Of a DNA stretch of 41,470 nt, positions 13,729 to 40,965 are shown piece by piece. The notes beneath the pieces are model-generated. The model made no database searches and was not told the origin of the DNA. It saw only the letters and a list, made by a program, of their open reading frames with translations. The translations under genes and the position numbers were made by a program. Each line of letters begins with the position of its first letter. Within the stretch, counting starts at the first letter, position 1. Origin of the DNA: Atractiella rhizophila (Eukaryota); contig MU271439.1 in NCBI GenBank assembly GCA_021432655.1, positions 1 through 41,470 of the forward strand, in the 5' to 3' direction.

Positions 13729-14899
13729 ACACATCGCCCATCGGCGACCGCACATAGTGTTTGCCCTAACACTAGTCCATATTGTTTGGATTCATATCTC
13801 ACATGTGGTTCACTTTTCACCCCACAAGGTTTGGCAAACACCATTTTCGGCGCATGACACAAGAACCCCAAACGTGTTGAAGAAATTAATTGAAGATCTG
13901 ATTTGAAGAATGCGAGAACATCCAGCATCTGTATTTGTATTTGTTGCTGCTGAATTGCCTTCAAAGTCCCTCGGCTGAAGACCACCAAAGTTTAGAAACA
14001 GCAAGATAACACCATGTCAAGATTGTTCAATCGCAATTCACTATCTTGCTCCATTCACCCCCCATCTTCTAACCCTAACCTACCCTCAACTCCATGACAC
14101 AAAGTTTCCGAGTGTTCGTTCATCTCTGCCATAAAGGGAGATGCTTTCTTCACAGAGAAATTGAAGCCAATGGAGAGAAATAACGAGCAATATGATTATC
14201 CGGGACAAATACTTACTGCGGGTTCTTTGCCACTTCAAAGGTCTCATGAAATAAACATTGCTGAGGAAGGATTTGATCAGGGTTGGATACCACTCTTCCC
14301 ATTCCACCATATGGGCAAAGATGCCTTGTGTTTATCCTTTGAATCAACAATTCACACCTCACACATCAGCATTCGACAGCATGTTCAATCTGGTGTCCAA
14401 TCCTGCCCGAGGAGGACTCTTTGTTCCACCATAATCATACCTCCTTCACTGTCGGATTCTCCTCCGTCACCGCTACCACCAGCCCGTTCGATTTCTAGTT
14501 CAGCGAGATGTGTGGGCATGTTGGCGAGGATTCAGGTATATTGTAGGACTGGATCCGATCGTCCTTTCAAGTGTGAGGAGTGTGCTTAATCATTTTGTCG
14601 ACACCACGACCTTAAGAGACCCAGAAGAATCCATTTGACTATCAAACCGTTCCCATCTGGATATTGTGTTCGTCCTCCCTCTTGATTGCTCCCAAAGATC
14701 AAAGATAAAGTGCTCCGATGCTAGCTGCTGTCCAGTCCATAGGATAAGAGATTCACAAGAAAGGATGTGTTGAAAGTCAGAAATTGTGTAATGAAGGACT
14801 ATGCGAACGTAAACTTCTCCACCAACAACAAATTGTGCCTGAACCTTATGGCCCTTATGGAAGGCGCCAAGTATACTTCATTCATCCTTCGACTGGCCT

Positions 14900-15787
14900 A
14901 ATTGTAAAAGTGTTAGTGTCGCTGCCTCGCATAAGTCCTCCTTCTCCATCCTGCTGACATCGAAGTTGAGAAACTGAAAGAGGTCTGGGACAAGCTCAAG
15001 GAGCTCTACCAGACTCAGGACCGACAAGCGTGCGTACTGCTCCTCCAGAAGCTTTATACGCTGCGTTATGTCGAAGGTGAATCCATGCAGGAGCACGTAG
15101 ACCGAATCAGAACCATGGGACAGGAGTTGAAAGTGATGGGAGACAAGGACGATGATGATATCGCCATGCTCCTACTTATCTCACTCCCACGGTCCTGGAT
15201 CGAGGTCGTCTCCTCCTTCCACACCATTGCGCACCTCCGACTTCACATCCTCATACCTCACCTCCCGTCTTCTGCTCAAAGCAGGAACCCTGACCAAAGA
15301 CTACCTCAGAAGCATTAAAAACGAAGACAGGGTGAGGAGGAAAGTACTTCACCAAATTGAATGGTGGGAGTAGTGGAGGAAAACCGAAAAGTGAAAAGAT
15401 GTATGGAAAATGCCATTATTGTGGCATTGACGGACATTGGGAACGGGACTGCCGCGAAAAGAAGAGAGAAGCAGGAGAGAAACCTGGAGAAGCTAGAATA
15501 TCAGAAGCCTTCCGCACGGTTACGGTGGAAGGGACTCACCATGAGGGGATCTACGTCAATTCCGCTGCCATGGACCACATCGTGCCCTTTGCAAACTGGT
15601 CCCCCGCCCAAGCCCCACGCGCGTCGCATCCACTCGTCCCACGGCGTCACCACACAAGCAATTGGCATTGGCACTGTCAAAGTGTTAACAAAGGTCAAAG
15701 GAGTAGAAAGAGAAATTGAAATAACTGACACGCTCTATGACCCTGAAATCGACTGCGCCCTCCTCTCCACCAACAAGTTGAACACGC
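14900..15787 (+). mobile_element. Ty1/Copia gag-protease relic, truncated by a Gypsy insertion
   Basis: EVWDKLKELY..LLQKLYTLRYVEGESMQEHVDRI..LLISLPRSW (UBN2/gag). CHYCGIDGHWERDC zinc knuckle. IYVNSAAMDHIVP (degenerate DSGA protease). AIGIGTVKV..ITDTLYDPEIDCALLSTNKL. Frameshifted; it stops where the Gypsy terminus begins at 15788. Confidence 0.9.
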
Positions 15788-18700
15788 TGTGGCAGGCACA
15801 AACATGTACAATCAATAGAATGAAATACACACATCCACCATCTATCACTCACGTCCGATCCCCACCTTGAGAACCGCTACAGGTGGCTAGCCTGCATCTG
15901 AACCTGCCCACGCCCACGCTGGCACCCAGAAAATCCTACCATCAAGACCCCTCCTGTCTCGCCTCGCTGCTATCACATTCACCCACCTTGCACCTCATCA
16001 ATAACGCCCCGCCGCTCCTGCCCATACCCCCCTCTCATCGCCTCTCTCCCATAGCCGAACAAAGAGCATCCCCTCCTCACACACAGATCTCACAAATCAG
16101 CTCACCATTCCCGGAACAATCCTCCGACAAGCTAACACCCCTACTGACAACTCGCACCTTAGACCTCACATTCAACAAGAGATGATCCATGGACCCGGAG
16201 CAAGGAGAAGGAAGATCAGGAATGAATGACAAGGGGGGAGAAGGGGGAGAGGGAATACAGATGATGCATTTAACGAAGTTGAGGGAATTAAGAAAGATAA
16301 TAAGGAAGAGAGAAAGAGAGAGAAAACGGTTGAGAAGGGAGAGGGAGGTAAGTATTAAGAATGTCACGTCTTGGAGAGGGAAAAGGGAGGAATTGAGAAG
16401 TTTTCTGCTAACATCCTAGCCTACCATAAGGAGCAGAAGGGGAGCGAAGGGGGATATTCCGAAGTATGGTGGAAAGAGAGGATGAAGTCGGAGAGAACAG
16501 GGAGGTGGAACGGTATAGCCTGATGAAGGCTATGGAGTGACTGAGAGGTTGCTTCAGGCCGACGATCATGTTCTGTATGCGCTTCAACAACGAAGGAGGG
16601 ACATGAGGGTTCACGGAACAAGTTGGCAGTCGCTGGAAGAAGCGTACAAATGGATAGAGGAGGCAGTTACACCGCCAAGAGTGTAGCAAGGTCTTACGCA
16701 GTATCAGGAATTGGAGGCACTGATAGACGAATATGGAAGCAAGGGACAGGAACTCGAAAAGAGGGTTCTGCTTGACCCATCAAACCCAGAATCCCAGCTG
16801 GTTCTACAACACATTTCATACACCCTCCAAGTCAAGTCGTGATGCATGGCTCCCAGACGATTACCAGAACGAACCTGTACTAGCTCAGAAACTCAAGGAT
16901 TCCTTCCCTCAAACTGTCTGAACACACCTCATCGGCCTTACGACGGTTAGAGAAAGTAGTGGATACAGTTGCAAAGCTGTCGGAGGTAAGCCTGGGACCG
17001 GACCTTAGGGAAGCGAGAAAGGAAAAAGAGGAGAGATTGAAAGAGAAGGAGGATATGTTTGAGATGTAGAAAGGCAATAAGATGTCATTCAAACGTCAAC
17101 GACGCAAAAACCCTTCCAGCAACCCTTTACGCAGAACTGACCGAACCCATCATTTCAACAACATCCTCTCGCAACACACCGAACAATCATTGAGCCACGA
17201 CTATCCTCACCCCTAATCCCAACCAGGATTGAACACGGAGCGTGGAGAACATACCTTTCGAACAAGTGAGCAGCATACAGTGCTGCGTTCAAACGATTCG
17301 TAGACAGGGGCACAGCAGCATCTCCCTTAAACCCGTTTCCCCTCTCGCCGGGAACCCTTCCAGCCAACTCAAATGACTGCAACGTTTGCAGGATGGAATG
17401 GGGAGGTAGAAGCCACTGTTGCAACGTGCCACCCGTCCCCCAAATCGAAAAGCAATTTTGATGGAGCTGCAGGAACCGGAAGTTCTTCCTGTTCAAGATG
17501 GTGAGCGGAGGTCGGTGGAATGGGAAGGGACAAGGAGGCGGAGGATGAAGTGATTGAAAGATGAGAGTGCATGTTCATTGCGCAAGAACTGGAAAAGGAT
17601 CTCAAAGTCGAAGACGATGAAGAAAGGTGAATACCTGCCTCCTGCAAACCAATGCAGTCCATTCATCATCCTATGTATCCAGTGCCTAAGGCAAGGATAG
17701 ATAAGGTGGTAGGATGGTCAAACATTCTAGAAAAAAGGGAAACACCTGTTGTTCCTCCTATCGAGAATACAATCTCCTTGTTCATCAAAATAGACAGGTC
17801 GTTCAAAATAGACGGGTCGTTCCTGCACTGGCTGAAGAAGTTAGTAGAGAGTTTAGAGAGAAGAGGGATAGAAAAACTTCTAGTGTCGGTCCCCTCTAGC
17901 GGCGCAGGTCCCATCGACGTTTCGAATGGAATTTCGACGGGGAACAACTGGGGAGGATGGCGCAGGCTCTTGCCTAAGCCTTGCAAGAGCATGCCCTTCC
18001 AGGCCACCACTGGCTTGGGAGTAAGTGAATCACCAGTACCGTTGGAGAGGGCACTGATGAACACAACACACCATCTGTCACATCTGACGAATTGGATCGA
18101 GAGATATCAGCACCTTACATCCCATCCAAAACACAAACACCACCACCAAAGACAAAAACCAACTCCCCCATCAACAACAGTTGCAGCCAACAACGAAGCA
18201 ACAAACAAATTACACTCAGCCACGGGCGAACCCAGCAGAGGCATAGCGATAAATTGTGCCAAAACGGCACCAGCCATGGCTACCCCTCAGGATGCATTAG
18301 CCGACTCGGAATCGAGTACTGGATCAAACGAAAGCCTACCGAGAATCAGAACAAGGGAGGCAGGATTCCGTCAGCTACCACTGCGCCACCCTCCCCATTG
18401 GCGGCGTCAAACCTAGCAGTGGACGAGGACGAAGGAATACCAGTCATAACCGAAGAACAGAGACGGTTGGCACAAGGCGGCTCAAGAGGCAACAATGGAA
18501 GAACAGTCAGAAGCGCTAAAAAGTGGACAAGAGGGAAGTTGTTTTGCATCACTATTGAAATTGGAACAGCTTGGACCGGGCCACTGGAAGGTTCACTTCA
18601 ATCATAGACAAGGGGGGGACCAGAAATTTGATGAGCAAGGACTCTTATCTAAAGAACCAAAGAAACCTGCCCCCCTCCTTCTGTCAGACAGTTCGCTGAT

Positions 18701-20465
18701 AATTGGGAATGGATCAGTAGCTTTACCAATCGGCAGAATAACGACTCAATCAGCAGTTATCAACGGTGCACAACTAGCCGAGACCCAGTTTGAGATCCTG
18801 GACACAGGGTGAACGTTTGATGTACTCCTCAGCAAGGGATGGAAAGAAGACTTGGAAGCGATTCGTTTCTACAAAAGGGACGTCATATGCTTCGCACCAA
18901 CAGACAACAGCAAGACCTGGAAATGTTATAGGAACGAAACGATTGGATCAACTCAACCGCCTCGAAAGCTCCCATCAAACCCCTTTACATCATCAAATTA
19001 CTCACTTCCGGAACCATATTCTACTTTGAAACCACCACCAACCATGACACCAATTTATCCTCACAATTCCAAATCATCAACAACTCTTGCGAAATAGATG
19101 AAGAAGTATTTGTGCTGGAGCAATACAAGAAAATCCTTGGTCCTCCCTCCCTGGCGCAGGTGCACATTGGGTCGGCGCTAGGGGAGGAAAGTAGCGATTT
19201 CGACTCAGCGCGTGCACAACTGGGGAGAGTAGAGGTTAGCCCAGCCGTCAAGAAAACCAACTCCATTTCCACCCCTGGTGGAAAGTGTGAGCAGCCGTTC
19301 CCACAACCCGACACCAGAGACTAATGCCCTAACATTCCCCCTCAGCATGCAGACCTTTCAAAATGCTTTTGCCGACCCCTCTAGGCTTACAAATACTGAG
19401 TTCTTCATCGGAATGATATCAGAAAACGAAATCCCTGAAGAAGTTGTAATAGCTATGGAAAGACGACCCATGAGATGGTGAGCGAAGAAGAAGATGAGAG
19501 ACAGGCACCAGGAAAATGCTGTGTGAACGGAACTGGATGGGAGACGATGGAGCAGAGATGGGTAGATGGGAAAGATTGAAGGATCATTTTGTGGTCAGAG
19601 ATAGAAAGGAAGCCTCGAACCCAACCGAAGAGCAGAGACAACAAGTCACGAAAGTCCTCAGGGATTATGTCGATGTATTCGCTACTTTAATATGCGACAT
19701 GTCTCGAACTGACATCATCCAGCACTCAATAAAGCTCAATCCAAACTCGCCTCCAACACACTCATCTTTCCAACAAACCCTCACTCCTCCACAGCGAATT
19801 TATGGACAACAAAATTGATGCCATGCTACATGACGACGTCATTGTCCAGCTTCCAACGGCCGAACACCAACCTCCTCACATTGCACATCTCAAAATCGTT
19901 CCCAAACCAAATGACAACGAGAAACCCTTCGACATATCCATCGACTCTCTTCGATTAAAGGTCTCTCAGGCACTAGCTCTGCTAGAAGGAGAGCAGACAG
20001 CTGAACCATCAGAGAAGACAGACGATCCGGAGAGGCATGAACTCCCATCGGGACCAAAGGCAAAATGGAGCATGGAAATAGCATTTCTGGGACTCAAGGC
20101 GGCGGTAGAATCATCTCCATTTCTTGCAGCAGGGCTCAATCAAACAGCAGCAGAAATGGCAGGAAACAAGTTGTATTCCTGTGTGGACATGTGTAGAGTT
20201 TCTATGCTGTCTTCATGCGAGAAGGGGACATTGAAAAGACAGCTTCTGTGCTCCTGGAAGAGGATTGTTCGCTTTCAAACTAATGGCATTAGGGCTCACT
20301 GGATCCCCTGGTACATACTCGGAAATGATGGATCGCGCGTTTGGAGATCTATGCCAAAAACACAGGGGGCGGCTAGGTTGGTGGGTGGACGACATCTATG
20401 GACCCGACAAATCTTGCCAAGTTTCACGTCAACACAATGGTTCCACTTGTGCTTGAGAAGTACGT
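15788..20465 (+). mobile_element. Ty3/Gypsy retrotransposon relic(s): terminus, gag, protease and RT, 3'-truncated and possibly a composite of two elements
   Basis: Terminus TGTGGC...GCTACA (15788-15881). Gag from 16189 (WRGKREELRSFL). Degenerate zinc knuckles near 17377 and 18255. Protease IIDKGGTRNLMS near 18600. RT with YVDVFA..DIIQHSIKL, MAGNKLYSCVD, MALGLTGSPGTYSEMM and WWVDDI. Many stops and frameshifts; no RNase H or integrase. Confidence 0.88.
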
Positions 20466-25583: not shown

Positions 25584-26318
25584 TCATTTCTCGGTCTCGT
25601 TGTCCTCTAGAACAGCTGACTGGGGTGGTGCTTCGCCCACTTTCACAGTGTAAACGGTGGATAATATAAGCCCAAGTCCGTACACCACAAATCCCACAAT
25701 CATAACGGAAAAGTAACTCCAATTCCAATCGTGATCCTCTGGGCTGGGGTGAAGATTATACTTCCTCATATCGTCCGCTGCCTTACCAGCGAAACCGAAT
25801 ACAAAACATGTGATGATGAAATTTATCAAGGTGATAATGCGTGCTCGGCGCTTGATGTCTCTGACCCAGAGAAACAACAAGCATAGGCCGATATGAACGA
25901 ATGAGATAATAACGTAGACCAACGGATTGTGCGTCAACTCCCAGTCGTAAGTTAAAGAGTTGTCGTGGACGGAGATGGCCGCAATCACCAGTCCTATGGC
26001 ATTGACAAGTTTCTCGATTGCGTCCCCTAGGTTTTCGCTGTCAATGAAGGTGATGCAAACTGCTTGAGCGACGATGCACAGCAGAAGGGCGGCATTTTGC
26101 TGCGCTTGGGGCCATTTTTGCGAGGTGGACACAAGGGACGCGACGACGGAAAGGTAGGCGCACACTGCGCTGCTGCGAGTTTTGAACCTCGCCGGTTCTC
26201 TGTTGGCCGCTGCGATGACGATACATGCAAGGTACCATAGAGCGGCAAACCCCAGAGTCGCAAGCGATACCACCGCAGATCCAGGGTTATTGATCTGGGT
26301 CCACTGAGCTTTGTCCAT
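25584..26318 (-). CDS. 244-aa integral membrane protein with about 7 hydrophobic segments; function unknown
   Basis: Uninterrupted ORF from ATG to stop with seven hydrophobic stretches. A probable 5'UTR intron (gtgcga...actaac...tag, ~26327-26390) lies just upstream of the ATG. Confidence 0.8.
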   Translation of the reverse strand: MDKAQWTQINNPGSAVVSLATLGFAALWYLACIVIAAANREPARFKTRSSAVCAYLSVVASLVSTSQKWPQAQQNAALLLCIVAQAVCITFIDSENLGDAIEKLVNAIGLVIAAISVHDNSLTYDWELTHNPLVYVIISFVHIGLCLLFLWVRDIKRRARIITLINFIITCFVFGFAGKAADDMRKYNLHPSPEDHDWNWSYFSVMIVGFVVYGLGLILSTVYTVKVGEAPPQSAVLEDNETEK

Positions 26319-27331
26319 ACTGATAACTAGATTGACGGTTAAGGTTAGTTGGAGTTAAATGGTTCGACGAGTCATTTGAACTTGTCGCACCTGATTTTAA
26401 TACGGGTGCAGCGGGCGGGGTGCGGTGGGTCCAAATAAATGGAGTGATGGTTGTTGGAATTACGAACGCGATAAGATGAATCGAGTAAGGTGATGAGAAC
26501 GGTTGTAGATTTCGATGTTACTCTAGCACCAGGGTGATTGAAAGTCAGGGAAGGAGATTGACAAGACCTTCATGCTGCACAGCAAAGTGGGTTGAAATAT
26601 CTGCTCACCTTTTCCCAGCGCTAAGATGCAGACAGCTGGTTCGATAGATACAAGGAAGAGCAGGCAGTGCTGGAGGTATTGAGAAAGTATGCGCTAGGGT
26701 ATCAAAGTCAGAGAAAGGGGGTAAATAGTTGAAAGCACTACTCAGGTGTGAAGACCGATTGCTCTGAAGCGGTGTGCGATCTTGCTCCACTAGACGTGAG
26801 GATTCGCATCCAGGTTTTATACTCTGCCCAAAGAATGGAAGGCAAGAACAGATGGGTTCACCGAGAGATGGAGAACTCACCCATTTAGAACTTCTCCAAC
26901 CCTCTCGTCCCCATCGGAGGCTTTCGATCGCCATCCAGACGGTCGTCGTCGACTGTTGAAGATGTCCACTAGTATCGTTGTTCATTGACCTGGCCGTGTG
27001 ACCATCATCTGTAGGTCCTACCGAGTCCTTCTATAGGTCAGTGGAAAAAGGAAAAATTAGACGTCGACGTGAAAGACAAAGCAGGCCAAAAATTTCGTCA
27101 ACATTTATATATATATATTCGACGTTTGTATGTTCTTGCAATCCAACCCTCAAGTTCTAGATGTCTCTCAATTCCTTTGTCCGTACTTTCTGCAAATGCT
27201 TTAGACTCAGAAACGTCCAGATCCATCAAATACTGGGCTCGTGACAGTGTGAAAGTCGTAACAGTCGACCATTCCACTCTGATCAGAAGTCAGCCCAGTC
27301 TCAAAGCAGCACAGAGGAGACATTTGCCACC

Positions 27332-30300
27332 ATGCCGTTATCTGAACTGGAAATCTATGAGAAGGCGATGTACGATACTCGCCATCATTTCCCCCTCTTT
27401 AATCCAATGTTTCCGCTGGATCCGTCTGGCTCGACGAGAAGGGTGCAACCTTTTGGCGAATGTGAGATTGGTGATTTCGGGTACTGCCGCGATGGTCAAT
27501 TTGTCGTCTCACGAAACGTCCGCACTTTGTTGGGTGCTGGCGACCCACCATTACCTCACGGCATTGTGGACGCTGCTTGCAGTCCACTGAAGCCAATATA
27601 TAAAGGCACAAGCTCATCTACAAATTTTGCGGTAAACGTCTCTGCACCAATGTGCGTTATTCCTCGGAAGCGTAATGAATTTCGGCGCTCAGTCGTAAAT
27701 TAGTGTTGCCGCTCCCACTTTCGCAGCTCAAATTGCAAGTCACTCTTTAGAGTCGGCTTTCCTCGTCACGAAACAACGTGCGCCTCGGTTCCAAGTTGAT
27801 CGGGTGGCGCTGGCAGAGAGCCACTTTAGGCGATATTACGAGCAAGTTTTGCAAGATGATTTAGATAACTGGTTCCGCCGCGCCAACGACAGAAATCTCT
27901 GTATGGTAGTCGGAGCTGTGAAAGCTTTTGATTGGCTTCATGCAACCTTTGCACAGAGTGGTCAATCCTTTCATCTCACGCTCGAATCACCACCGCTGGG
28001 ATTCGACATAGGACGTGATTGCAGAAACAATTTAGGTGCCAGGCTGCATCATGGTCCACTTCTGCATAACCCACGTAATTCTCTCGCTTGTTCATACCTT
28101 GCTCCGCTGAAGCCATATTCAGGAAGGGGCATTCTTTCTACAGCAGCATACTCAATTGGAAATCAAACTCTGTCATCAGTCGAATCAAGATCAGGTGGCA
28201 CAAGCGTCTGCCCTTGAAGGTTGAAGGTCGAGGTTCCAGCCCATCTTCCCCCATCACATCGTGAAGGTGAATCTGTTGACTCAATCGTATGCGATATTGC
28301 GGGCAGTGAGAAAGTTAATCACTTATCAACATGATGCATCATTGTTTCTAATTGACATTTTCCATCAAATTCCTGATCCCTTGGATGTTCTTCTCGATGC
28401 TATGTTGATGGTACCGTTGGTTTACATTCTGCTGTGCCTGTCGCTAACCTTTAATAGCTACGGCCAAAAAACACAATCGCCATTTCTTCCGATATTCACC
28501 TCTCTACCTTGTGCAGAACGGTAGATATCTTTTGTCCCTTTGAGGCACTCCGAAAGCTAAGAAACCGCATAGTCGCAGTGGCTGTTTGATCCCGAAGGAT
28601 GGACTGTGTAGCAAGCCATCTACTTGTTGGAGGGTTGCCAGAACTGCATTAAGGGTTAGGAAGATGGTAACTATCTGCTCTCAGTCGTTCAGCTCTGACA
28701 CCTAAGGAATAGTGGTAACACTCAGCTTCCCTGACGAATCGTACCTTCCCGAGTTCGCCCCAGCGCGTAAGGATGGGCTGTCTAAAGGCAGCGTCAGCCA
28801 TGTGACTTCGTATAGAATAGAACTCCCAGCGTATTCTTCGACCGTGACGCTAACTTCCCAAGCGTCTCTGCAGCCTAGCCAGTTATTACAAATGTCACCC
28901 ATGTCAGATTCTGCAAGTGCGGAGGACAGCTTGGATGGAAATGTTGATGTGAACCTGGATAACGATCTCCCATCGATACAACAAGCTGGAATGCATGTCG
29001 GCTTTGGGAATGAAGAGGGCTCCGAGGCCATTGCTTCATCTTCTACAGGGGTTCCGGCGGATTACGCCTTGGATGGAGACGTCAACTTGGATCACGATTT
29101 CCCATCAATGCATCAAGCTGGAACCGATTTCGACTTTAGAAACGAAGAGGACGATGCAGACACCTTGCGACTTCAAGTTCAAGCTTCCTCCCCTATCGTT
29201 TCTCCCACCTCCCCAACCCAACCGGGAGCGAGGAAACGCTCGATAAGTTCCCCCAACACATCGGCCATTTTCCGCGCCGCGCTTCCCCCACAATTTTACG
29301 GCCGCGAAGAAGAGATCAACAGCATCAGAGAAGCTGCCCTCGAGGGAAGTCCGGTAGCAATTCTTGGAGGAGCTGGAAACGGAAAATCCACAATCGCAAG
29401 AAGGCTCCTTCATGATCCTCAAATCCAAAGGGAATTCACAGACACTGAAAAGGACCGTCGGTTCTTCGTCAATTGCGATACCATCAAAAGTTTCCAAGGC
29501 CTCAGTGCGAAGCTATGCCAGGACATTTTCGAACTCCACTCTTCTAATGTATTAGAGCGAGACGCTGTAGCGCAAAATGCCTCCTCATTCTAGACCATTT
29601 TGAGACTTTAGCTAATGCGGACAAGGATAACCTTCAAGGCTTTCTTCGAACCATTCTGTCGCCCCCAACAGTCAGCTCCTTGGTGATCACTCAGCGAGGA
29701 TATCAGCCACCAATCATAGACTACACTGACACTCAATTCACTTCCATTCGGATAGGAAGACTTATGACGAAACCTGCTGAAATGCTATTACTCCACAGCT
29801 CAACATTTCGCCAGATGGAATGCGACCCTTCCCTCGTAACAGAGGTCGTAAAACAATTGGAAGGGCATCCGCTTTCCATTCGTCTGTTCGCTCTTCGATT
29901 CAATCAAGCTTGTCAGTCTCTTCGAGCACTCCTTTCTGAATGGAAGAAAGTACGAACCCAGATTCTGAAACAAACGCAAAATGGCGATGTCACTCTCTGT
30001 ACCTCCATCATAGTTTCTCTCCAATCCCCTTCTCTCAACGACCGTAGCCACCGTTGTCAATTTGCACTCGGACTGCTTTGTTTGGTTTCAGATGGTCTGT
30101 GTCAAGCACACCTTAATCAGCTTGTGAATGACGAAAAAGATGAGCTGGAAGTTCTAGACCGACTTTTGCAAGCAGGCTTAGTGGAAGAGTCGGTTGGGCT
30201 GAAAACCAGGCGACCCCGACTCCGTGTACTTGCTCCCATTCGAGATTTCATTATTTCTACATTAGAGACTAGTCACGGTCACGGTCACGGTCAAATCCGC

Positions 30301-31815
30301 AGATTGAAGAGTTTTATCAGGATGAGGTTCAAATTTCAGTCGTGGGACTTGGGAAATTTTCAGACATTCCCCGATCAACAGAAGTGTTCGACAAGTTACT
30401 CCGACATCAGATCGCTGCTGCTCATGAGATCATGAATCGTTCTGGCCAGACAATCCCTTTAGAGAATGCACGATCCATCATATTTGATGAATATGCCAAT
30501 TTGACGGAGCTAACACGTCGAGCTTTCACTACTTTTCATGACTCCAGAAAAATAGACGGCCTGAAATTTATTTTGAAGGTTTCAATTTTTCTTGCGAACA
30601 TTTATCCCTTATCCGAAGACTCTCTCCTTGCAGCAGTTGTGCAAGTCAGCAATTCAATCCAAAAATAACGATAATGTTTGATACCCCTGCGTTCTTTTGC
30701 AAGGGACCACACTAGGAGGTTAGCAGAAGCGACTCGACAGGTCATGCTCAACATCCTCAAGACCCTAGAGGAATCAGATGAACCACGCACTGAGGCCAGG
30801 TCCACGGTTGCGCTTGGAAAAGTCTACCTTCAACTAGGAATGCGAGGGAAGCTTTCAATGGCGCAAAAGTCATCTTCTCCAAACTGGGAGAAAGAAGCGA
30901 CGAGGCAAGGTGCATTCTCGAGCTTGGGTCAGTCGACCTGTGACTTCACCAGACCGAGAAAGCAAGGGAAGCATTTGAAACAGCCAGAGCGATCTTCTCA
31001 GAACTCGGGGAGCAGGGTGACGAGGCCAGGTGTATAGTCGAACTCGCGACGTTAGACTTCAAACTTGGGCAGGTGGAAAAAGCGAGGAAAGCATTCAAGG
31101 CGGCCCACTCGATCTTCTCAAAGCTGGGAGACGAACAACTCAAGGCGAAGTGCATTGTCGCACTTGGTTTGATTGACGTCGAACTTGGGCAGTACGATAC
31201 AGGGATTGAAGCACTCATTGACGCCAGAGATGTCTTCGCGGCAGCAAGAAGATCGACTCAGCGAGGCTGGGTGCGGTGTTCAGCTTGGAGAGAGTTATCT
31301 TGAGCTCTCAGAGAACGAGAAAGCGAAGGGAGAGTTCATGAGGGCCAGAGACATGTTTTCACAGTTGGGAGAGCGATACAAGGAGGCAAAGTGTATCTAC
31401 GGCCTGGGAAGGGTTGCCTTGAAGTCCGGACAGAACGAGGATGCAAGGAAATCGTTCAACACAGCCAGAACCATTTTCTGGGAACTGGGCGAACGAGAAG
31501 ATGAAGCATGGTCCATCTGCCAGAGTGGTTTTGTCGACCTGAAGCAGAATGACAATAATGCGAGAGAAGCATTCGATACAGCTAAAGCCACGTTCTCAGA
31601 GCTGGGAAACCGACTTGGCGAGCAAAGTGCCTTGCTGGACTGGGATGCTTCGACCCCATCCTAGAGCGCACAGATTAGCGACGGGAAGATTCAATGAAGC
31701 TGCAGAAATATACTCCAACTTGGGGCATCAATGCAACGAAAAGCAAACCCGTGAGGTAGTCTACCTCTATCGTGGAATGCTCAGGAAGAAATCTGTGACC
31801 CAAAGCCATAAGTAA
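27332..31815 (+). pseudogene. NLR-like gene: putative gasdermin-like N-terminal domain + STAND (NB-ARC/NACHT-like) NTPase + TPR repeats; multiple frameshifts and stops
   Basis: gccaccATG at 27332. Introns at 27652-27703, 28075-28122, ~28411-28458, ~28521-28572 and ~28667-28706. Walker A GGAGNGKST (~29366), RRFFVNCD, Walker B CLLILDHFET (after a frameshift near 29560), sensor LVITQRG, LEGHPLSIRL and LRVLAPIRDF. ~40-aa TPR repeats (EARCI..LG......G..EKAR.AF..AR.IFS.LG) span ~30780-31760. Confidence 0.85.
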
Positions 31816-32259: not shown

Positions 32260-34035
32260 TCAATTCTTCTCGATAGGTTTAACGTGTATCCAAAACCCGC
32301 CCTAACCCTTCATTGAGCCACTAATCTACTTTTCGGGGCAACATACCTTCGCTCTCCAAACACCGGAGATATTAGATTTCCAGCTATTCTCCCTCCCCGT
32401 CCATCTCGCCGTTCCCCTCTCCCCCACATCATCCACCTCCAACCTCTGTCCCTCCATCTTCTGCCCTTCTTTCATCCTGATATCTAACCTCTCCACATCA
32501 AATTCGAAATTGAGTAATATCATCGTTATCGTGCTCAAGACCGCCGCAATTGCGACATGTCTACCAGCGCAATGAGTAGCCCCAGCTCCAAAATAGTAGA
32601 GGTCCTTTACTCTTTCCCTTCCTTCGCTCCGGACGAACCTCGTCCCATCAAACACAAAAGGCTCCTTCCAAACCTTCTCATTGACGTGAAGGGAGCGCGT
32701 TGGGACGACAAGGACAGTCCCTTTCTTGATTGGAACCTCGTGCTTGTCGGAAGAGAGGACAGTGTCTTGCTTAGCTACTCGACCCATGGCGGGACCAGCG
32801 CGAAGCCGCATGGTTTCGTGAAAGGCAGAGAGGAGAGTTGGAAGATGGGTCGTCAGCTCGTCAGCTGTGTAGTTCAGAAAGAGGGTGCTTTGGGAGGGCA
32901 GATTGGTAATTTCAGACTTGATTTGGGAGAGGAGAGACGGAGATTGGAGGAGGTGGACCATTGTCCAACTTTGCGCGTGGGAACTTGAGTCTCGTTCAGA
33001 GTGAGGAGGAGGCTTACGCGACGGAGTCCGAGAGATTTGCTATCAGAATTGTTAGTTTCCAGCACATGTTTGATAGAGACAGCGCACAGGACAGAACGAA
33101 AAGCAAGACCTTCCAGAACCTCGCACAGCTTTCCTCACTCCAACGTGTCTCCTCCAACACAGCTCTAACCTTCTTCACAGACAAGGAAGAATCTTCCGCT
33201 AATCCGTTCTTGTGAAACTGCAGGCAAAGCGCTCTCAATTTCTCCTGATATTCGATCCCTTTCCTCAATACCGTCCATCTCAACAAGGCACCGATGGGCC
33301 AAGGAAGCTTCGAAGTGATGTAGATTCCCTGAAAGTCCGCCTCAAAAGTCCTGATCATTTCTGGCAACCCATCCAGGGGGAAGGTGCTTCCAAAGAAGGC
33401 TTTGGCGCTGGCACGAACCATAGCTTCGTAGCATACGCGATGGAGTTCGATCTTCTGCCCTTCGACAGATACGGTTTCTTTGAGAGAAGTGACTTCGTGC
33501 GCGATGCAGGTGTTGAAGGAATGAACCAAGGAGGAGAGATTGAGAGGAGAGAGCGTGTGGTGAAGTATTCGCTCAATCTTGGACAGCGATTGAGAGTCCG
33601 AAGATGAAGGGTCCAAAAGGGTAGAAGGTAAACCGTGAATATCGACGTTGAAATATCGATGCAGTTCCTTTGCTGCTCAATTCGTGAATACAGAATGTTG
33701 AGCTCGAACGGACGGACGAACCATCAAAGGTAGAAGTGTTCTTATACATCTTCCTCCACAGTCCATAATCCAACACATGCTATTCAATAAAATCAGCCAC
33801 TTATTCCATTTGCGAAAGAGCGACTCACAGTTTGCGAAGGCAGCAAGCGCAAAGGAAATCGGACCTCATAGAACGGCTGTTCTCGATTCTTGGCATACCA
33901 CAAATCCAGCTGGCGCTCAGAGTCCTCTTCCACCTTCATCAGCTTTACAAAGCGATAAATCTGGTTCGTAACATAGCTAAGAATGCTGACTAGGATGGCG
34001 AGGACGATGCTTTGGGCAGTGGAGAGGGAAGCCAT
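32260..34035 (-). CDS. Cytochrome P450, CYP7/CYP8 (cholesterol 7-alpha-hydroxylase/prostacyclin synthase)-like; 6 exons
   Basis: N-terminal membrane anchor, ExxR (ETMR), EPFVFDGTRF (PERF-like) and the heme motif FGAGATHCAG. Five GT-AG introns give an open frame ending GGFWIHVKPIEKN* at 32260. Confidence 0.92.
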
Positions 34036-34401: not shown

Positions 34402-35952
34402 ATGGTGAGTTGCTCCTTGAACGAGATGGACACTGTGCTGTTGGCCTCCTTTCCGTTGATGCAATGTTGATTGGTGTCTATCGGACCGTGGGGCTGAAAT
34501 CCCGAGTGATGGGAGGTGTTGTTAGATAGCAGGGATTGTTGATTTGCCCCATTCACTCCCAAAACCTACGTTCGCGAAGACCGTAGATTTGGGCAACACT
34601 TTGTGTATGTTGCTCAATCTCGTCGTCAGCTGTGTGGGGAGATGCCCCAATGTTTCCATGTCCACAGATCCGAACACTTCTTTGAAATGTTTACGCCTAT
34701 TCTGACGCCAAGCTGCAGTCATACGGTCCGCCCTCAGGCCCTCCTCCCCCATTTCCACCAAGCAACCAGCCACCGTATCCTCCTCCGAATGCAGGCTATG
34801 GAGCGCCAGGCGGCTACGCTCCTCCTGCTGGCGGTTATGCACCACCCGCTGGCGCTCCTGCACCAGCTCGAGGAGCTGAAGATCCTTTCACAGCTCTGAC
34901 GTACGCCCTTGTCATGTCTGAAGCATTCTTCGGGTTTCTCATTAAGTGATAGCCGCTACGACACTGTGTTTCTGGTAGATGATTCTGGATCCATGGAAAT
35001 GTTTTGGGATGAGACGAGAAATGCCATGGAGATGGTAGTTTCCAAGGCAGTCCAATACGATGCAGATGGAAGTGAGTCCCGTCGCGCTATCACCTTGTTC
35101 ATAGAATATGTTGATACCTCTTATCGAACAGTCGACATGTATTTCTTCAATTCGACCCATGTTGCACAATCCGTCAGTTCCGCGCAAGAGGTTAGAAAAA
35201 TATTCAACCAAGTCTGGCCAACTCGTTCAACGCCAACAGCTGCTGCTCTGAAACGGGTGATTCTTCAGTTCTCGCCCCTGTATACTCGCTCAGAAAACTT
35301 TGGGCAGATTTTGGATCCTTACGTCGCAGCCCTGGAAGCGCAGAAGGCGTCCGGTGGACCCAAGCTCAAGCCTTTGAATTTGATCGTTCTCACCGGTAGG
35401 CGGAGCTCCTCAAGCTCAAAGTCTCACGTAGGCTCGCTGACCCCCATTGCGCAGACGGCGCCCCAGACAGGAACCAAGACCCAGAACCAGTCATTGTAGA
35501 CATCGCAAGACGTCTCGATGCTGGTCGCTTTCCCCTTTTCCAAGTCGGAATCCAATTCATCCAGGTCAACTGTCCTTTCACAATTTCGTGGCGACGACTA
35601 AATACTGGGGTTGAGTAGATTGGGAACGACGACGAAGCTACAGCCCACTTGACTAGGCTCGATGACGATCTGAAGAAGGTTCATAAGATTAGAGACATGT
35701 GTGATACGACTCCGGCTACGGTAGGGGAGGTGCGATCACTGTACTTCATTTGCTAATTGGATTGTTGACGGAGAAGCAGGCTGTCGTCTCTGGCGACAAA
35801 CTCCTCAAAGCGTACGTAGTTTAATCCTAACACTCATCTTTACTTACTTTTCTGCGTATCAGGCTCCTCGGCGGTTTGAACAGGTTTGTCCCACTTATGC
35901 TCAAGAATTAGCGAGCTTACTTCTTAGTAGGAAAGTTGATAGTTCCGGCTAG
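34402..35952 (+). CDS. VWA-domain protein with a Pro/Gly/Tyr-rich N-terminus
   Basis: ATG-only first exon (intron 34405-34718), then SYGPPSGPPPP..GYAPP repeats, YDTVFLVDDSGSM (MIDAS DxSxS), YDADG, STPT, KPLNLIVLTDGAP, QVGIQFIQIGND and LDDDL. Multiple short introns; stop at 35950-35952. Confidence 0.9.
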
Positions 35953-39360: not shown

Positions 39361-39385
39361 NNNNNNNNNNNNNNNNNNNNNNNNN
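39361..39385. other. Assembly gap (25 N)
   Basis: Run of N bases. Confidence 1.
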
Positions 39386-39629: not shown

Positions 39630-40965
39630 ATGTTGCATCATCTAATCTCCCTCGTCCTCCTCTCATCCATCTTGAACATCGGATCACAAGCGGCAATCAT
39701 CAAGATCTATGATCCCTCCAAAGCGGGAGCGAAGGTGAGTCCTCTATCCCTTCAAGACGGCAGTGACCAAAATGCGTGGTGGAACAGGTTACCAACATTG
39801 GTCCTTTGAACGGGAACGTGTGTCCCAAACGTCTGTCACTCCTCTACTCCTCCGATCCTTCCCACGACCAATAACCATCTTGCCTGTGTCTTATCTCCTC
39901 ATCGTTGAGCAGAATACCCCAACTGCGTGGGGAACGATCAAACACAGGCGCAGACTTTCTTCGTGTCTGGCTCCGGCTCTGCGGCGACTTATAACTTTTA
40001 CAAGGGTGCAAAGTACGATAGAGCTGAGGTGCATGGTGGGAAGGGGCTATTTGAGGAAGGAAAGACTTACTACATCAATTGGTAGGCTCTCATTCTGTCT
40101 CCTCGTCCAAATCATTCAAGGCTACAACCCTTCGCAATGTTAGGAAGTTTCTCATGACCAACCTCCCCAAGCCTGTCGATTGCACGAATCAAGACGAGGC
40201 ATGCACCGTGAAGACGAATCGAGTGTACGCCCCTCATCTTCATCGATTCCGCGAAGCGAGAAGCTGAAGAATTCAATGCAACTAGTTTCCAATTCCATCA
40301 ATTCGCTGGCACCTCGTCACAGCCTGCGGTTCTCAACATTCCCCTCCAATGGCTCGTTGACGGCTCTGGCAAGAACCTTACTTACGTCCGTTTTTCTTCG
40401 GACATTGCCTCCTTCCATTGAGGCTAACTTTGGGAAATAGTATAACAAACCTAATAACGATCAGTACGTTCCGCTCTTCACAACACCAGCGGTTGCGAAC
40501 AAGTGGTACGACGTCACCATCCGCATCACTACTGGACGCACCGCTCAGACCGGCATTACCGAATTGTGGTTGGATGGAAAGAAGAAAACACTTACGAATG
40601 GGCAGACCGTCGCGAGGGTGCCGACATGGGATGGAGGTGTCACCGAGCCGAAATGGTGTGTCGTCTCCAATACGACGCGAGACGCTAACATGAAGCGATG
40701 GGGCAGGGGAGCCTACGGTGCTTGGATGACATCGATCACCACCAAAGTAGGGAAGATTATCGTGGCAGACCGCTATGCCGATATTCTCGATGAGAAGGCG
40801 AAGACAGAAGGAACAGCGGCAGCGAGCTTGATGGCGGCAGTCGCACAGGAACATAAGAGCTTCGCTGTCGCAGACGTCCTCAAAGGCTCTTACGCTGATG
40901 CATTCATCCCAAAAGACAAGTGGTACAGTAAGGCGGCGTCAAAGGCACTCGTCGCAAGTGAGTGA
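39630..40965 (+). CDS. Secreted polysaccharide-lyase-like protein (PL20/heparin lyase I-like beta-jelly roll)
   Basis: Signal peptide MLHHLISLVLLSSILNIGSQA. Spliced motifs DRAEVH..FEEGKTYYINWKF, VFQFHQF, NKWYDVTIRI..GITELWLDG and EPKWGAY. About 7 short GT-AG introns; stop at 40965. Confidence 0.75.

Follow-up and report, generated by a model that had tools for sequence, protein, structure and literature searches.

A transcribed, decayed NLR-type locus of Atractiella rhizophila with a probably gasdermin-like N-terminal domain

Can a gasdermin serve as the N-terminal effector of a fungal NOD-like receptor (NLR), within one and the same protein? The question is raised by a locus of Atractiella rhizophila located at positions 27332-31815, forward (+) strand, of contig MU271439.1 (GenBank assembly GCA_021432655.1), of which positions 1 to 41,470 are denoted here as the window. 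A previous reading of the letters alone (the sequence-only reading) had proposed that this locus encodes, in a single gene, a gasdermin-like pore-former fused directly to a STAND-type NTPase followed by TPR repeats. The evidence described below leads us to favour, on balance, the view that the locus is a transcribed, decayed 'all-in-one' fungal NLR, whose N-terminal domain is probably a very divergent gasdermin-like, membrane-attacking domain.

The accessible portions of the literature draw fungal gasdermin cell death as a matter of two genes, in which a protease-bearing sensor, sometimes an NLR, adjoins a stand-alone gasdermin gene (PMC12881547, PMC10197012, PMC9815663, PMC8851545). In the same portions of these four papers, 'all-in-one' receptors are described only for helical killers of the HeLo/MLKL type, and no gasdermin was found as the N-terminal effector of an NLR, although the supplements, outside the search, may list some. 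RCD-1 is presented as a precedent for the activation of a gasdermin independently of cleavage (PMC12881547), and Pfam is stated to annotate 23% of basidiomycete NLR N-termini (PMC9815663). One correction to the initial proposal is needed here, as HET-Q2, which it had named as a gasdermin, is described as the protease, the gasdermin being HET-Q1 (PMC8851545).

The N-terminal domain and its family

All the peptide strings on which the proposal was built were found at their places in the + strand translation of 27332-31815, among them IGDFGY (27467-27484), NLCMVVGAVK (27894-27923), GNQTL (28158-28172), ISRIKIR (28175-28195, one base out of frame), DPLDVLLDAML (28375-28407) and AISSD (28479-28493). 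That this series is not due to chance is argued by the five relatives (E≤0.001; E 2.9e-23 for the best, 1.4e-6 for the last) that were obtained in an exhaustive phmmer search of 1.84 billion representative proteins with the open reading frame (ORF) 27699-28214. A profile search of proteins of 700-2000 aa, with three matches at E≤0.001 among 8000 scored candidates, added P0006 and P0007, and a cluster look-up added P0008. All eight relatives (P0001-P0008) are entered as 'hypothetical protein BT69DRAFT_...' of A. rhizophila, and none of them contains a Pfam family over cut-off, nor do the N-terminal pieces of the locus. The uncharacterised basidiomycete family that had been suspected is, therefore, supported, in the form of eight paralogs that all bear the name of this one species.

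In tblastn, these paralogs align to the window in consecutive order between 27329 and 28668 (E 1e-11 to 4e-31), so that the similarity to the family extends along the whole domain; the region of exon 1 (27329-27664) is matched by P0001, P0002, P0003, P0004 and P0006, and exon 2 shows 42% identity to P0006. The conserved unit comprises about 340 aa. An N-terminal helix comes first; behind it lie an R-rich stretch that contains the hairpin GD[FI]GY..GTF, the strand QSQ..A.LATKS and the helix YFK.Y. The unit continues with the CMITGVVKSFDWL.AVF strand pair, the sequence GDQTLFISRI and a Pro/Ser/Gly-rich linker, and finishes with a helical module that reads DPL.VLLEAML ... IASD.D..LC ... EW..QKA..LL..C..C ... 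LTL.F. The family-invariant motifs GD.GY, CM..G..K, Q-T-L, DPL.VLL.AML and IASD.D are all present at the locus. No match was returned by word-index searches of longer proteins with exons 1 and 2, no usable one by the ESM Atlas with exon 1 alone, and no relative by two metagenome scans. The family profile gave a single match in 401 Bacteroidota genomes (E 4e-4 per genome), an ORF of outer-membrane type that was read as a chance match: it is a 337-aa Bacteroidota ORF (L121, 904-1917, minus strand) with a signal-peptide-like start and the look of an outer-membrane beta-barrel, and it illustrates how beta-rich profiles cross-match.

Behind the conserved unit, the C-terminal parts of the paralogs are entirely different. 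Those of P0003 and P0005 have in common a beta-rich domain of about 250 aa with no Pfam family, P0004 ends in another one, and an RNase III-like match in P0006 (E 2.6e-4, under cut-off) was discarded, as the PDB sequences gave it no support. In the Atractiella family, one N-terminal unit is thus coupled to at least four different back ends.

We consider it likely that this unit is akin to gasdermins. The first line of evidence comes from the ESM Atlas, which was queried with residues 1-345 of P0004. By features, the 30 nearest clusters were unannotated Basidiomycota families (0.96), and the nearest Pfam-bearing clusters were Bact_GSDM (0.86, 152 shared features) and Gasdermin/pejvakin (PJVK, 0.82). 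By structure, the nearest were again unannotated Basidiomycota clusters, with template-modelling (TM) scores of 0.66-0.73, among which was an 801-aa WD40 protein; next in rank stood a bacterial cluster of 261 aa (0.53/0.67), followed by GSDMD, pejvakin and two rows of bacterial gasdermins (bGSDMs) at 0.37-0.47 and by TamB at 0.33. Gasdermin is, therefore, the only named family in the feature list and accounts for four of the six named structure rows, the remaining two being the WD40 fusion partner and TamB. The WD40 cluster groups 57 Basidiomycota proteins of about 801 aa that are annotated for WD40 only (TM 0.66 by query), and their non-WD40 part aligns structurally with residues 31-338 of P0004, which suggests, on predicted structures, that a similar N-terminal domain is fused there directly to WD40 repeats.

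The second line of evidence is an independent profile-profile comparison with bGSDMs, specified in advance. The bGSDM set was collected with the PADLOC model PDLC02986, at E≤1e-6, from 3 of 401 Bacteroidota and 5 of 381 Myxococcota genomes, and it was verified against the solved 7N51, 8SL0, 7N52, 9V2S and 7N50 (E 2e-91 to 1e-16). Seven ORFs (233-274 aa) made up the alignment; L156, flagged for internal stops, was among them, and the weak match L161 was excluded. PF04598 over cut-off was found in none of the 401 Bacteroidota genomes, and no bGSDM was present among ORFs adjoining peptidase C14 genes in the 23 of 36 screened. When the family was compared with the seven bGSDMs by hhalign, E-values of 0.039 (alignment A6), 0.017 (domain-only alignment) and 0.021 (a second family alignment, with six paralogs and two window exons) were obtained. 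The match was always centred on NLCMITGVVKS.. against ..LYVITxxLKS.. (strand 27894-27923 of the window) and, at low mact, it became co-linear from residues 33-331 of the family to 2-254 of the bGSDMs. The observed score of 24.7 was reached by none of 90 column shuffles (mean 14.5, standard deviation 2.4, maximum 24.3), reversals gave 11.2 and 12.7, a peptidase C14 control scored 15.3 with the domain-only alignment and 17.2 with the second one, and nine unselected single ORFs gave 12.0-19.8, so that none of the 11 unselected natural controls attained it. By eye, the bGSDM consensus GDxxLxFAFKAxR would also resemble the GDQTLFISRI of the family. Finally, the secondary structure taken from the AlphaFold2 runs predicts a beta-rich part that is joined by a disordered linker to a small helical tail, a predicted layout which is gasdermin-like.

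A number of results weigh against kinship with gasdermins. The sequence comparison covered Pfam, the PADLOC bGSDM model and PDB sequences. At E≤10, five family members matched no gasdermin in Pfam (the sole Pfam match was CPT_N, at 0.22), none of the five matched the PADLOC models including PDLC02986, and the family profile found no solved gasdermin among the PDB sequences, where it gave only two ribosome-inactivating-protein rows with E about 0.7. Two AlphaFold2 models on a shallow alignment were unusable, with a predicted local distance difference test (pLDDT) of 36.6 and 38.0; Foldseek and VIA gave no match with these models of pLDDT 37-38, a null that is uninformative because the models failed. 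Atlas scores below 0.9 are to be taken as leads only, and its feature and structure lists count as one source; furthermore, the 152 shared features are fewer than the 170 typical of same-family matches, and the Atlas model has a pLDDT of 0.44. The hhalign match, with a score of 24.6-24.7, is weak and was assigned a probability of only 1.3-2.7%, and the outer-membrane-type ORF described above, which was HMMER's best chance match in 401 genomes, scored 34.6. Chance can, therefore, produce scores of this size when they are selected for.

The same observations allow a different explanation, namely that the decayed NLR is as described and its N-terminal domain is a beta-rich domain that is specific to the lineage and has no kinship with gasdermins; it might act as another kind of effector, or as a regulatory or adaptor domain, before varied C-termini. 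The lack of HMMER-level similarity to gasdermin models and solved gasdermins, the lack of an AlphaFold2 fold, the very low hhalign probability, exceeded in score by a beta-barrel ORF selected by chance, and the fact that the Atlas leads derive from one language model and a low-confidence structure all speak for this view. However, gasdermin had been named beforehand and then came back as the only named feature family and in four of six named structure rows of the Atlas, and the hhalign match was co-linear and outscored all 90 shuffles and all 11 unselected natural controls. An unrelated domain is seen as quite possible, if short of probable. The proposal of a gasdermin-like domain thus found backing in the Atlas look-alikes and in the hhalign E-values of 0.017-0.039, but neither in HMMER similarity nor in a usable AlphaFold2 model.

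Fusion of the domain to an NTPase and TPR repeats

Three public sequencing runs contain the locus: X1 and X2, from one sample, and X3, from another sample whose kind is unrecorded. The contigs of X1 and X2 show no differences from the window over most of the locus. The four GT..AG-bounded segments listed in Table 1 with an X3 joint are kept in X1 and X2 and absent from the X3 contigs, and for this reason X3 was treated as presumably derived from RNA. One X3 contig of 2088 nt spans 27770-30050 with no differences and four GT..AG joints. It is made of pieces 27770-28074, 28123-28409 and 28712-30050, plus 157 letters between mapped pieces that correspond to exons 4 and 5 (63+94), and it leads from the family domain into the NTPase, beyond Walker A and Walker B. 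The depth of the NLR transcript in X3 is 6-17. As for the first intron, its start was predicted from the GT at 27652, which sets the end of exon 1 at 27651, and no other GT/AG pair leaves the homologous segments of the family alignment in frame; its joint is not among the spliced joints of the X3 contigs.

The last 5' intron had been placed at 28655-28706 (acceptor 28706), and the X3 joint moves it to 28667-28712. The corrected intron still enters the frame that carries Walker A, as had been foreseen, but the exon preceding it crosses a TAG (28657-28659). Once spliced, the frame 28660-29590 runs through 295 codons without a stop and holds both VVTLSFPDES, the last strand of the family, and Walker A (GGAGNGKST, 29366-29392), and because of this the fusion rests on more than the inference of a splice. 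Downstream, the NTPase gave only Pfam matches under cut-off (AAA_16, E 1e-5, 26.5 bits for a cut-off of 32.6; NACHT, 3.7e-4; NB-ARC, 0.02), which is attributed to a frameshift that splits the module, and its second half gave no Pfam or PDB sequence match. We take LLILDHFE (29581-29604) to be the Walker B-like motif, and VITQRG (29683-29700) and GHPLSI (29863-29880) to be the further motifs of such an NTPase. The repeats were matched by TPR_12 with E 8e-15 (55.2 bits, cut-off 30.1) and 3.6e-8; six regular 40-aa units with a 120-nt period start at 30842, 30962, 31082, 31323, 31443 and 31560, and eight or nine would fit into the region. The order of family domain, NTPase and TPR repeats on one unit is thus supported, and this one-contig, one-ORF architecture is a matter of observation, as are the domain family and the decay. 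The locus is one transcript-like unit, not one readable gene.

Two results count against the fusion as a feature of the family. Neither an NTPase nor TPR repeats were detected by Pfam in any of the eight annotated paralogs, and no fused form was found among the three matches of the profile search in 700-2000-aa proteins (8000 scored candidates). The fusion is, therefore, known from the broken copy only. The eight paralogs without an NLR part would also be accounted for if two neighbouring genes, one for the family domain and one for the NTPase-TPR part, had been merged by read-through or in the assembly of contigs: a single transcript is not proved by a contig that spans two genes, and about 190 codons of low-complexity linker lie between both parts. 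Such a merger is nevertheless very unlikely, since the frame 28660-29590 joins the LTL.F-type strand, the linker and Walker A with neither a stop nor a candidate start context, and the intron 28667-28712 splices into exactly this frame. Hence, of the STAND-TPR fusion proposed initially, the architecture is upheld by the 2088-nt contig and the shared ORF, but not the notion of a gene in working order, and the paralogs do not share it.

Decay of the copy and its variant version

A single frameshift had been allowed for in the sequence-only reading. The spliced model contains nine frame changes (the homologous segments follow the path 0>2>0>1>1>1>0>2>2>1>1>2>1>0) and five in-frame stops (28609 TAG, 28657 TAG, 30666 TAA, 30672 TAA and 30941 TGA), and translation from the ATG ends at 28215, after 261 codons. 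Exon 3 alone has three breaks: one base is missing behind GNQTL (28173-74), where the homologs read GDQTLFISRI; the frame returns near 28256; and a 61-nt insert (28314-28374), with a GT start and without an AG, is kept in the X3 contig, its excision being such that CDIAGSEK would be linked to DPLDVLL, as in the paralogs (C-D-x(8-10)-DPL). At the two stops of exon 5 (28609 and 28657), the homologs carry K/Q and D/E, and the NTPase frameshift falls between about 29560 and 29581. The single uninterrupted coding sequence that characterises a fungal NLR is, therefore, absent from this locus, which is a transcribed pseudogene.

The frame breaks are reproduced in the DNA contigs of X1 and X2 and in gap-free X3 contigs, with no differences from the window, and identical letters in the DNA contigs of another sample mean that they are not assembly errors. 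Across the NLR part, the X3 contigs are unbroken over 28712-30050, 30047-30895, 31022-31230 and 31222-31718, so that the breaks inside them are not introns. A second version of the locus was also recognised, as contigs about 91-92% identical to parts of it in X1 and X2 and, at one place, in X3 (for instance, with 32 differences and one gap in 411 letters over 31210-31621). Its indels undo three of the breaks: in X2, a T behind 28172 rejoins GNQTL and ISRIKIR; an additional A behind 30634, together with a loss of one base at 30684, opens 30273-31034 (254 codons instead of 131); and the loss of one base at 31246/31248 opens 30944-31661 (239 codons instead of 119). No variant contigs over 28456-28926 or 29241-30339 were among the matches listed, and the variant pieces over the N-terminal exons and the TPR region may come from a single further fused gene, from alleles or from different paralogs. 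In spite of these three repaired breaks in the same sample, a functional gene, in which the breaks would be due to errors of assembly, to recoding or to introns that escaped recognition, is highly improbable, given that the window version recurs without differences in three runs and two samples, spliced contigs included, that the NLR-part breaks lie inside continuous contigs of the spliced run, and that nine frame changes in both directions, with five stops of all three kinds, match no known recoding.

Table 1. Coordinates and basis of the features recognised at the locus.
Feature	Position	Strand	Content	Basis
Exon 1	27332..27651	+	ATG; conserved N-terminal helix EIYEKAMYD..HFPLFNP; hairpin IGDFGYC..GQF	translation
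Intron 1 (predicted)	27652..27703	+	52 nt, GT..AG, phase 2	sequence reading
Exon 2	27704..28074	+	core of the family domain: SAFLVTK, FRRYYEQV helix, NLCMVVGAVKAFDWLHATF strand, HHGP	phmmer, tblastn
Intron	28075..28122	+	48 nt, GT..AG	joint 28074>28123, X3 contig
Exon 3, three breaks	28123..28410	+	DPLDVLLDAMLM behind the 61-nt insert	X3 contig unbroken over 28123-28409
Intron	28411..28457	+	47 nt, GT..AG	joint in X3 contig
Exon 4	28458..28520	+	LRPKNTIAISSDIHLSTLCRT, helical module	aligns to family-invariant IASD.D..LC
Intron	28521..28572	+	52 nt, GT..AG	joint in X3 contig
Exon 5	28573..28666	+	end of helical module; in-frame TAG 28609-28611 and TAG 28657-28659	
Last 5' intron	28667..28712	+	46 nt, GT..AG	X3 contig joint 28665>28712 (cut +1)
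Terminal family strand VVTLSFPDES, then acidic linker	28713..29290	+	homologs read LTL.F	translation
STAND-type P-loop NTPase	29291..30270	+		Pfam matches under cut-off, motifs
Microsatellite (GTCACG)3.7	30272..30293	+	frame change located here	TRF
TPR region	30675..31815	+	about 8-9 40-aa (120-nt) units in four reading-frame pieces; final TAA 31813-31815	

Possible activation, known systems and surroundings of the locus

If the locus descends from a gasdermin-like NLR, as we favour, the intact gene would have encoded a beta-rich region (about 250 aa) that leads through a Pro/Ser/Gly-rich linker into a helical module (about 85 aa), followed by an acidic linker, an NB-ARC/NACHT-type P-loop NTPase and about eight TPR units. 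The first three elements would constitute one domain, known only from the multi-copy Atractiella family, with the helical module as the regulatory tail of a gasdermin-like membrane-attacking module. By analogy with the HeLo/HELL-NLRs and the plant CC-NLRs, ligand binding by the TPRs would lead to oligomerisation of the NTPase, and the crowded N-terminal domains might then escape from their helical tails and permeabilise the membrane, without a separate protease; this way of activation is inferred from those other receptors. The copy at the locus cannot act in this manner, because its ATG frame stops after 261 codons and is followed by breaks downstream. No protease family was detected at E≤0.01 in the 22 window ORFs of at least 110 aa that were scanned, and these 22 ORFs include no adjacent S8, CHAT or caspase-like gene of the kind known from HET-Q1/HET-Q2. 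The recurrence of the N-terminal unit before unrelated C-termini, both in the paralogs and in the WD40 cluster of the Atlas, fits an effector plugged onto varied sensors.

Among known systems, the fungal NLRs with HeLo, HeLo-like or MLKL-like domains are comparable in that, according to the available parts of the sources, a cell-death-type N-terminal domain stands directly before a NOD NTPase and TPR, WD40 or ANK repeats (PMC12881547, PMC9815663), activation is presumed to occur by oligomerisation, and the N-terminal domain recurs in other architectures. In contrast, the Atractiella domain is not a four-helix bundle but beta-rich, about 340 aa long and equipped with a helical tail; no Pfam family covers it, and this copy is a pseudogene. 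With the fungal gasdermins HET-Q1 and RCD-1, it possibly shares the pore-forming fold, as well as the link to NLR-type sensors with TPR or WD40 repeats (PMC8851545, PMC12881547). Those are depicted, in the same partial sources, as stand-alone proteins of about 240-280 aa activated by a separately encoded S8 or CHAT protease or by an allelic partner, whereas at the Atractiella locus the sensor would be fused in cis. Likeness to the bacterial gasdermins consists of the weak, co-linear profile-profile match on the ..ITxxxKS.. strand, Atlas TM scores of 0.37-0.67 and a small C-terminal tail behind a beta-rich core; unlike the Atractiella domain, with which they have no HMMER-level similarity, they measure 233-274 aa (in the seven-ORF set) and are activated by proteases, according to the accessible literature. 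With the fungal NB-ARC/NACHT-TPR NLRs the locus shares Walker A and B, a GxP-type motif and the 40-aa TPR_12 units with a 120-nt period, and it differs from them only in its N-terminal domain and in its state of decay.

A wider proposal, advanced here as tentative and rather doubtful, is that a clade of very divergent gasdermins exists in basidiomycetes whose members, instead of being controlled by neighbouring proteases, are joined in cis to C-terminal modules that can be exchanged (NB-ARC-TPR at this locus, WD40 in the 801-aa cluster, other domains in the Atractiella paralogs). Under this proposal, a sister copy with less damage, present in the same strain, would code for a functional 'gasdermin-NLR' that needs no cleavage. 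Such a sister copy, if real, would be a self-contained receptor of the pyroptosis type. A gasdermin-like domain at the N-terminus of an NLR would imply that induced proximity, in place of cleavage, can also activate gasdermins, would extend the parallel between necroptosis-like and pyroptosis-like branches, and would draw attention to a large group of basidiomycete proteins that lack annotation and are poorly covered by Pfam. The locus itself is a relic, and its value is that of a pointer to an architecture and a family.

Several further observations concern the locus and its vicinity. On the minus strand, over 26880-27648, there is an X3 contig of 651 nt that covers 27331-27483, 27549-27648 and further upstream sequence; its depth of 77 exceeds that of the NLR transcript (6-17). 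Its joints are bounded by CT..AC (27279-27330 and 27484-27548), so that it represents a spliced antisense transcript over exon 1, and it may be the 5' part of an upstream minus-strand gene with a weak MFS_1 match (25587-26354). The acidic linker contains an internal duplication (LDGNVDVNLD at 28931-28960 and LDGDVNLDHD at 29069-29098), and over 28927-29240 contigs of the three runs match only short pieces and then diverge from the window; the X3 depth of up to 744 in this segment indicates that more highly represented loci share the linker motif. At 28371-28412, a contig of X1 and X2 matches the DPLDVLLDAMLM exon alone and differs from the window on both flanks, which agrees with many paralogs sharing the most conserved piece of the family.

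Further away, 14098-20464 holds remnants of a copia-type long terminal repeat retroelement, spread over several interrupted frames and recognised by Retrotran_gag_2 (E 4.9e-18), a zinc knuckle and a Pol beta-barrel domain, so that the NLR pseudogene sits in a decaying, repeat-bearing stretch. A scaffold gap of 25 N lies at 39361-39385, and the neighbours at 32329-33676 (-), 34900-35496 (+) and 40441-40962 (+) correspond to a cytochrome P450 (E 6.2e-27), a weak VWA match and a weak polysaccharide lyase match.

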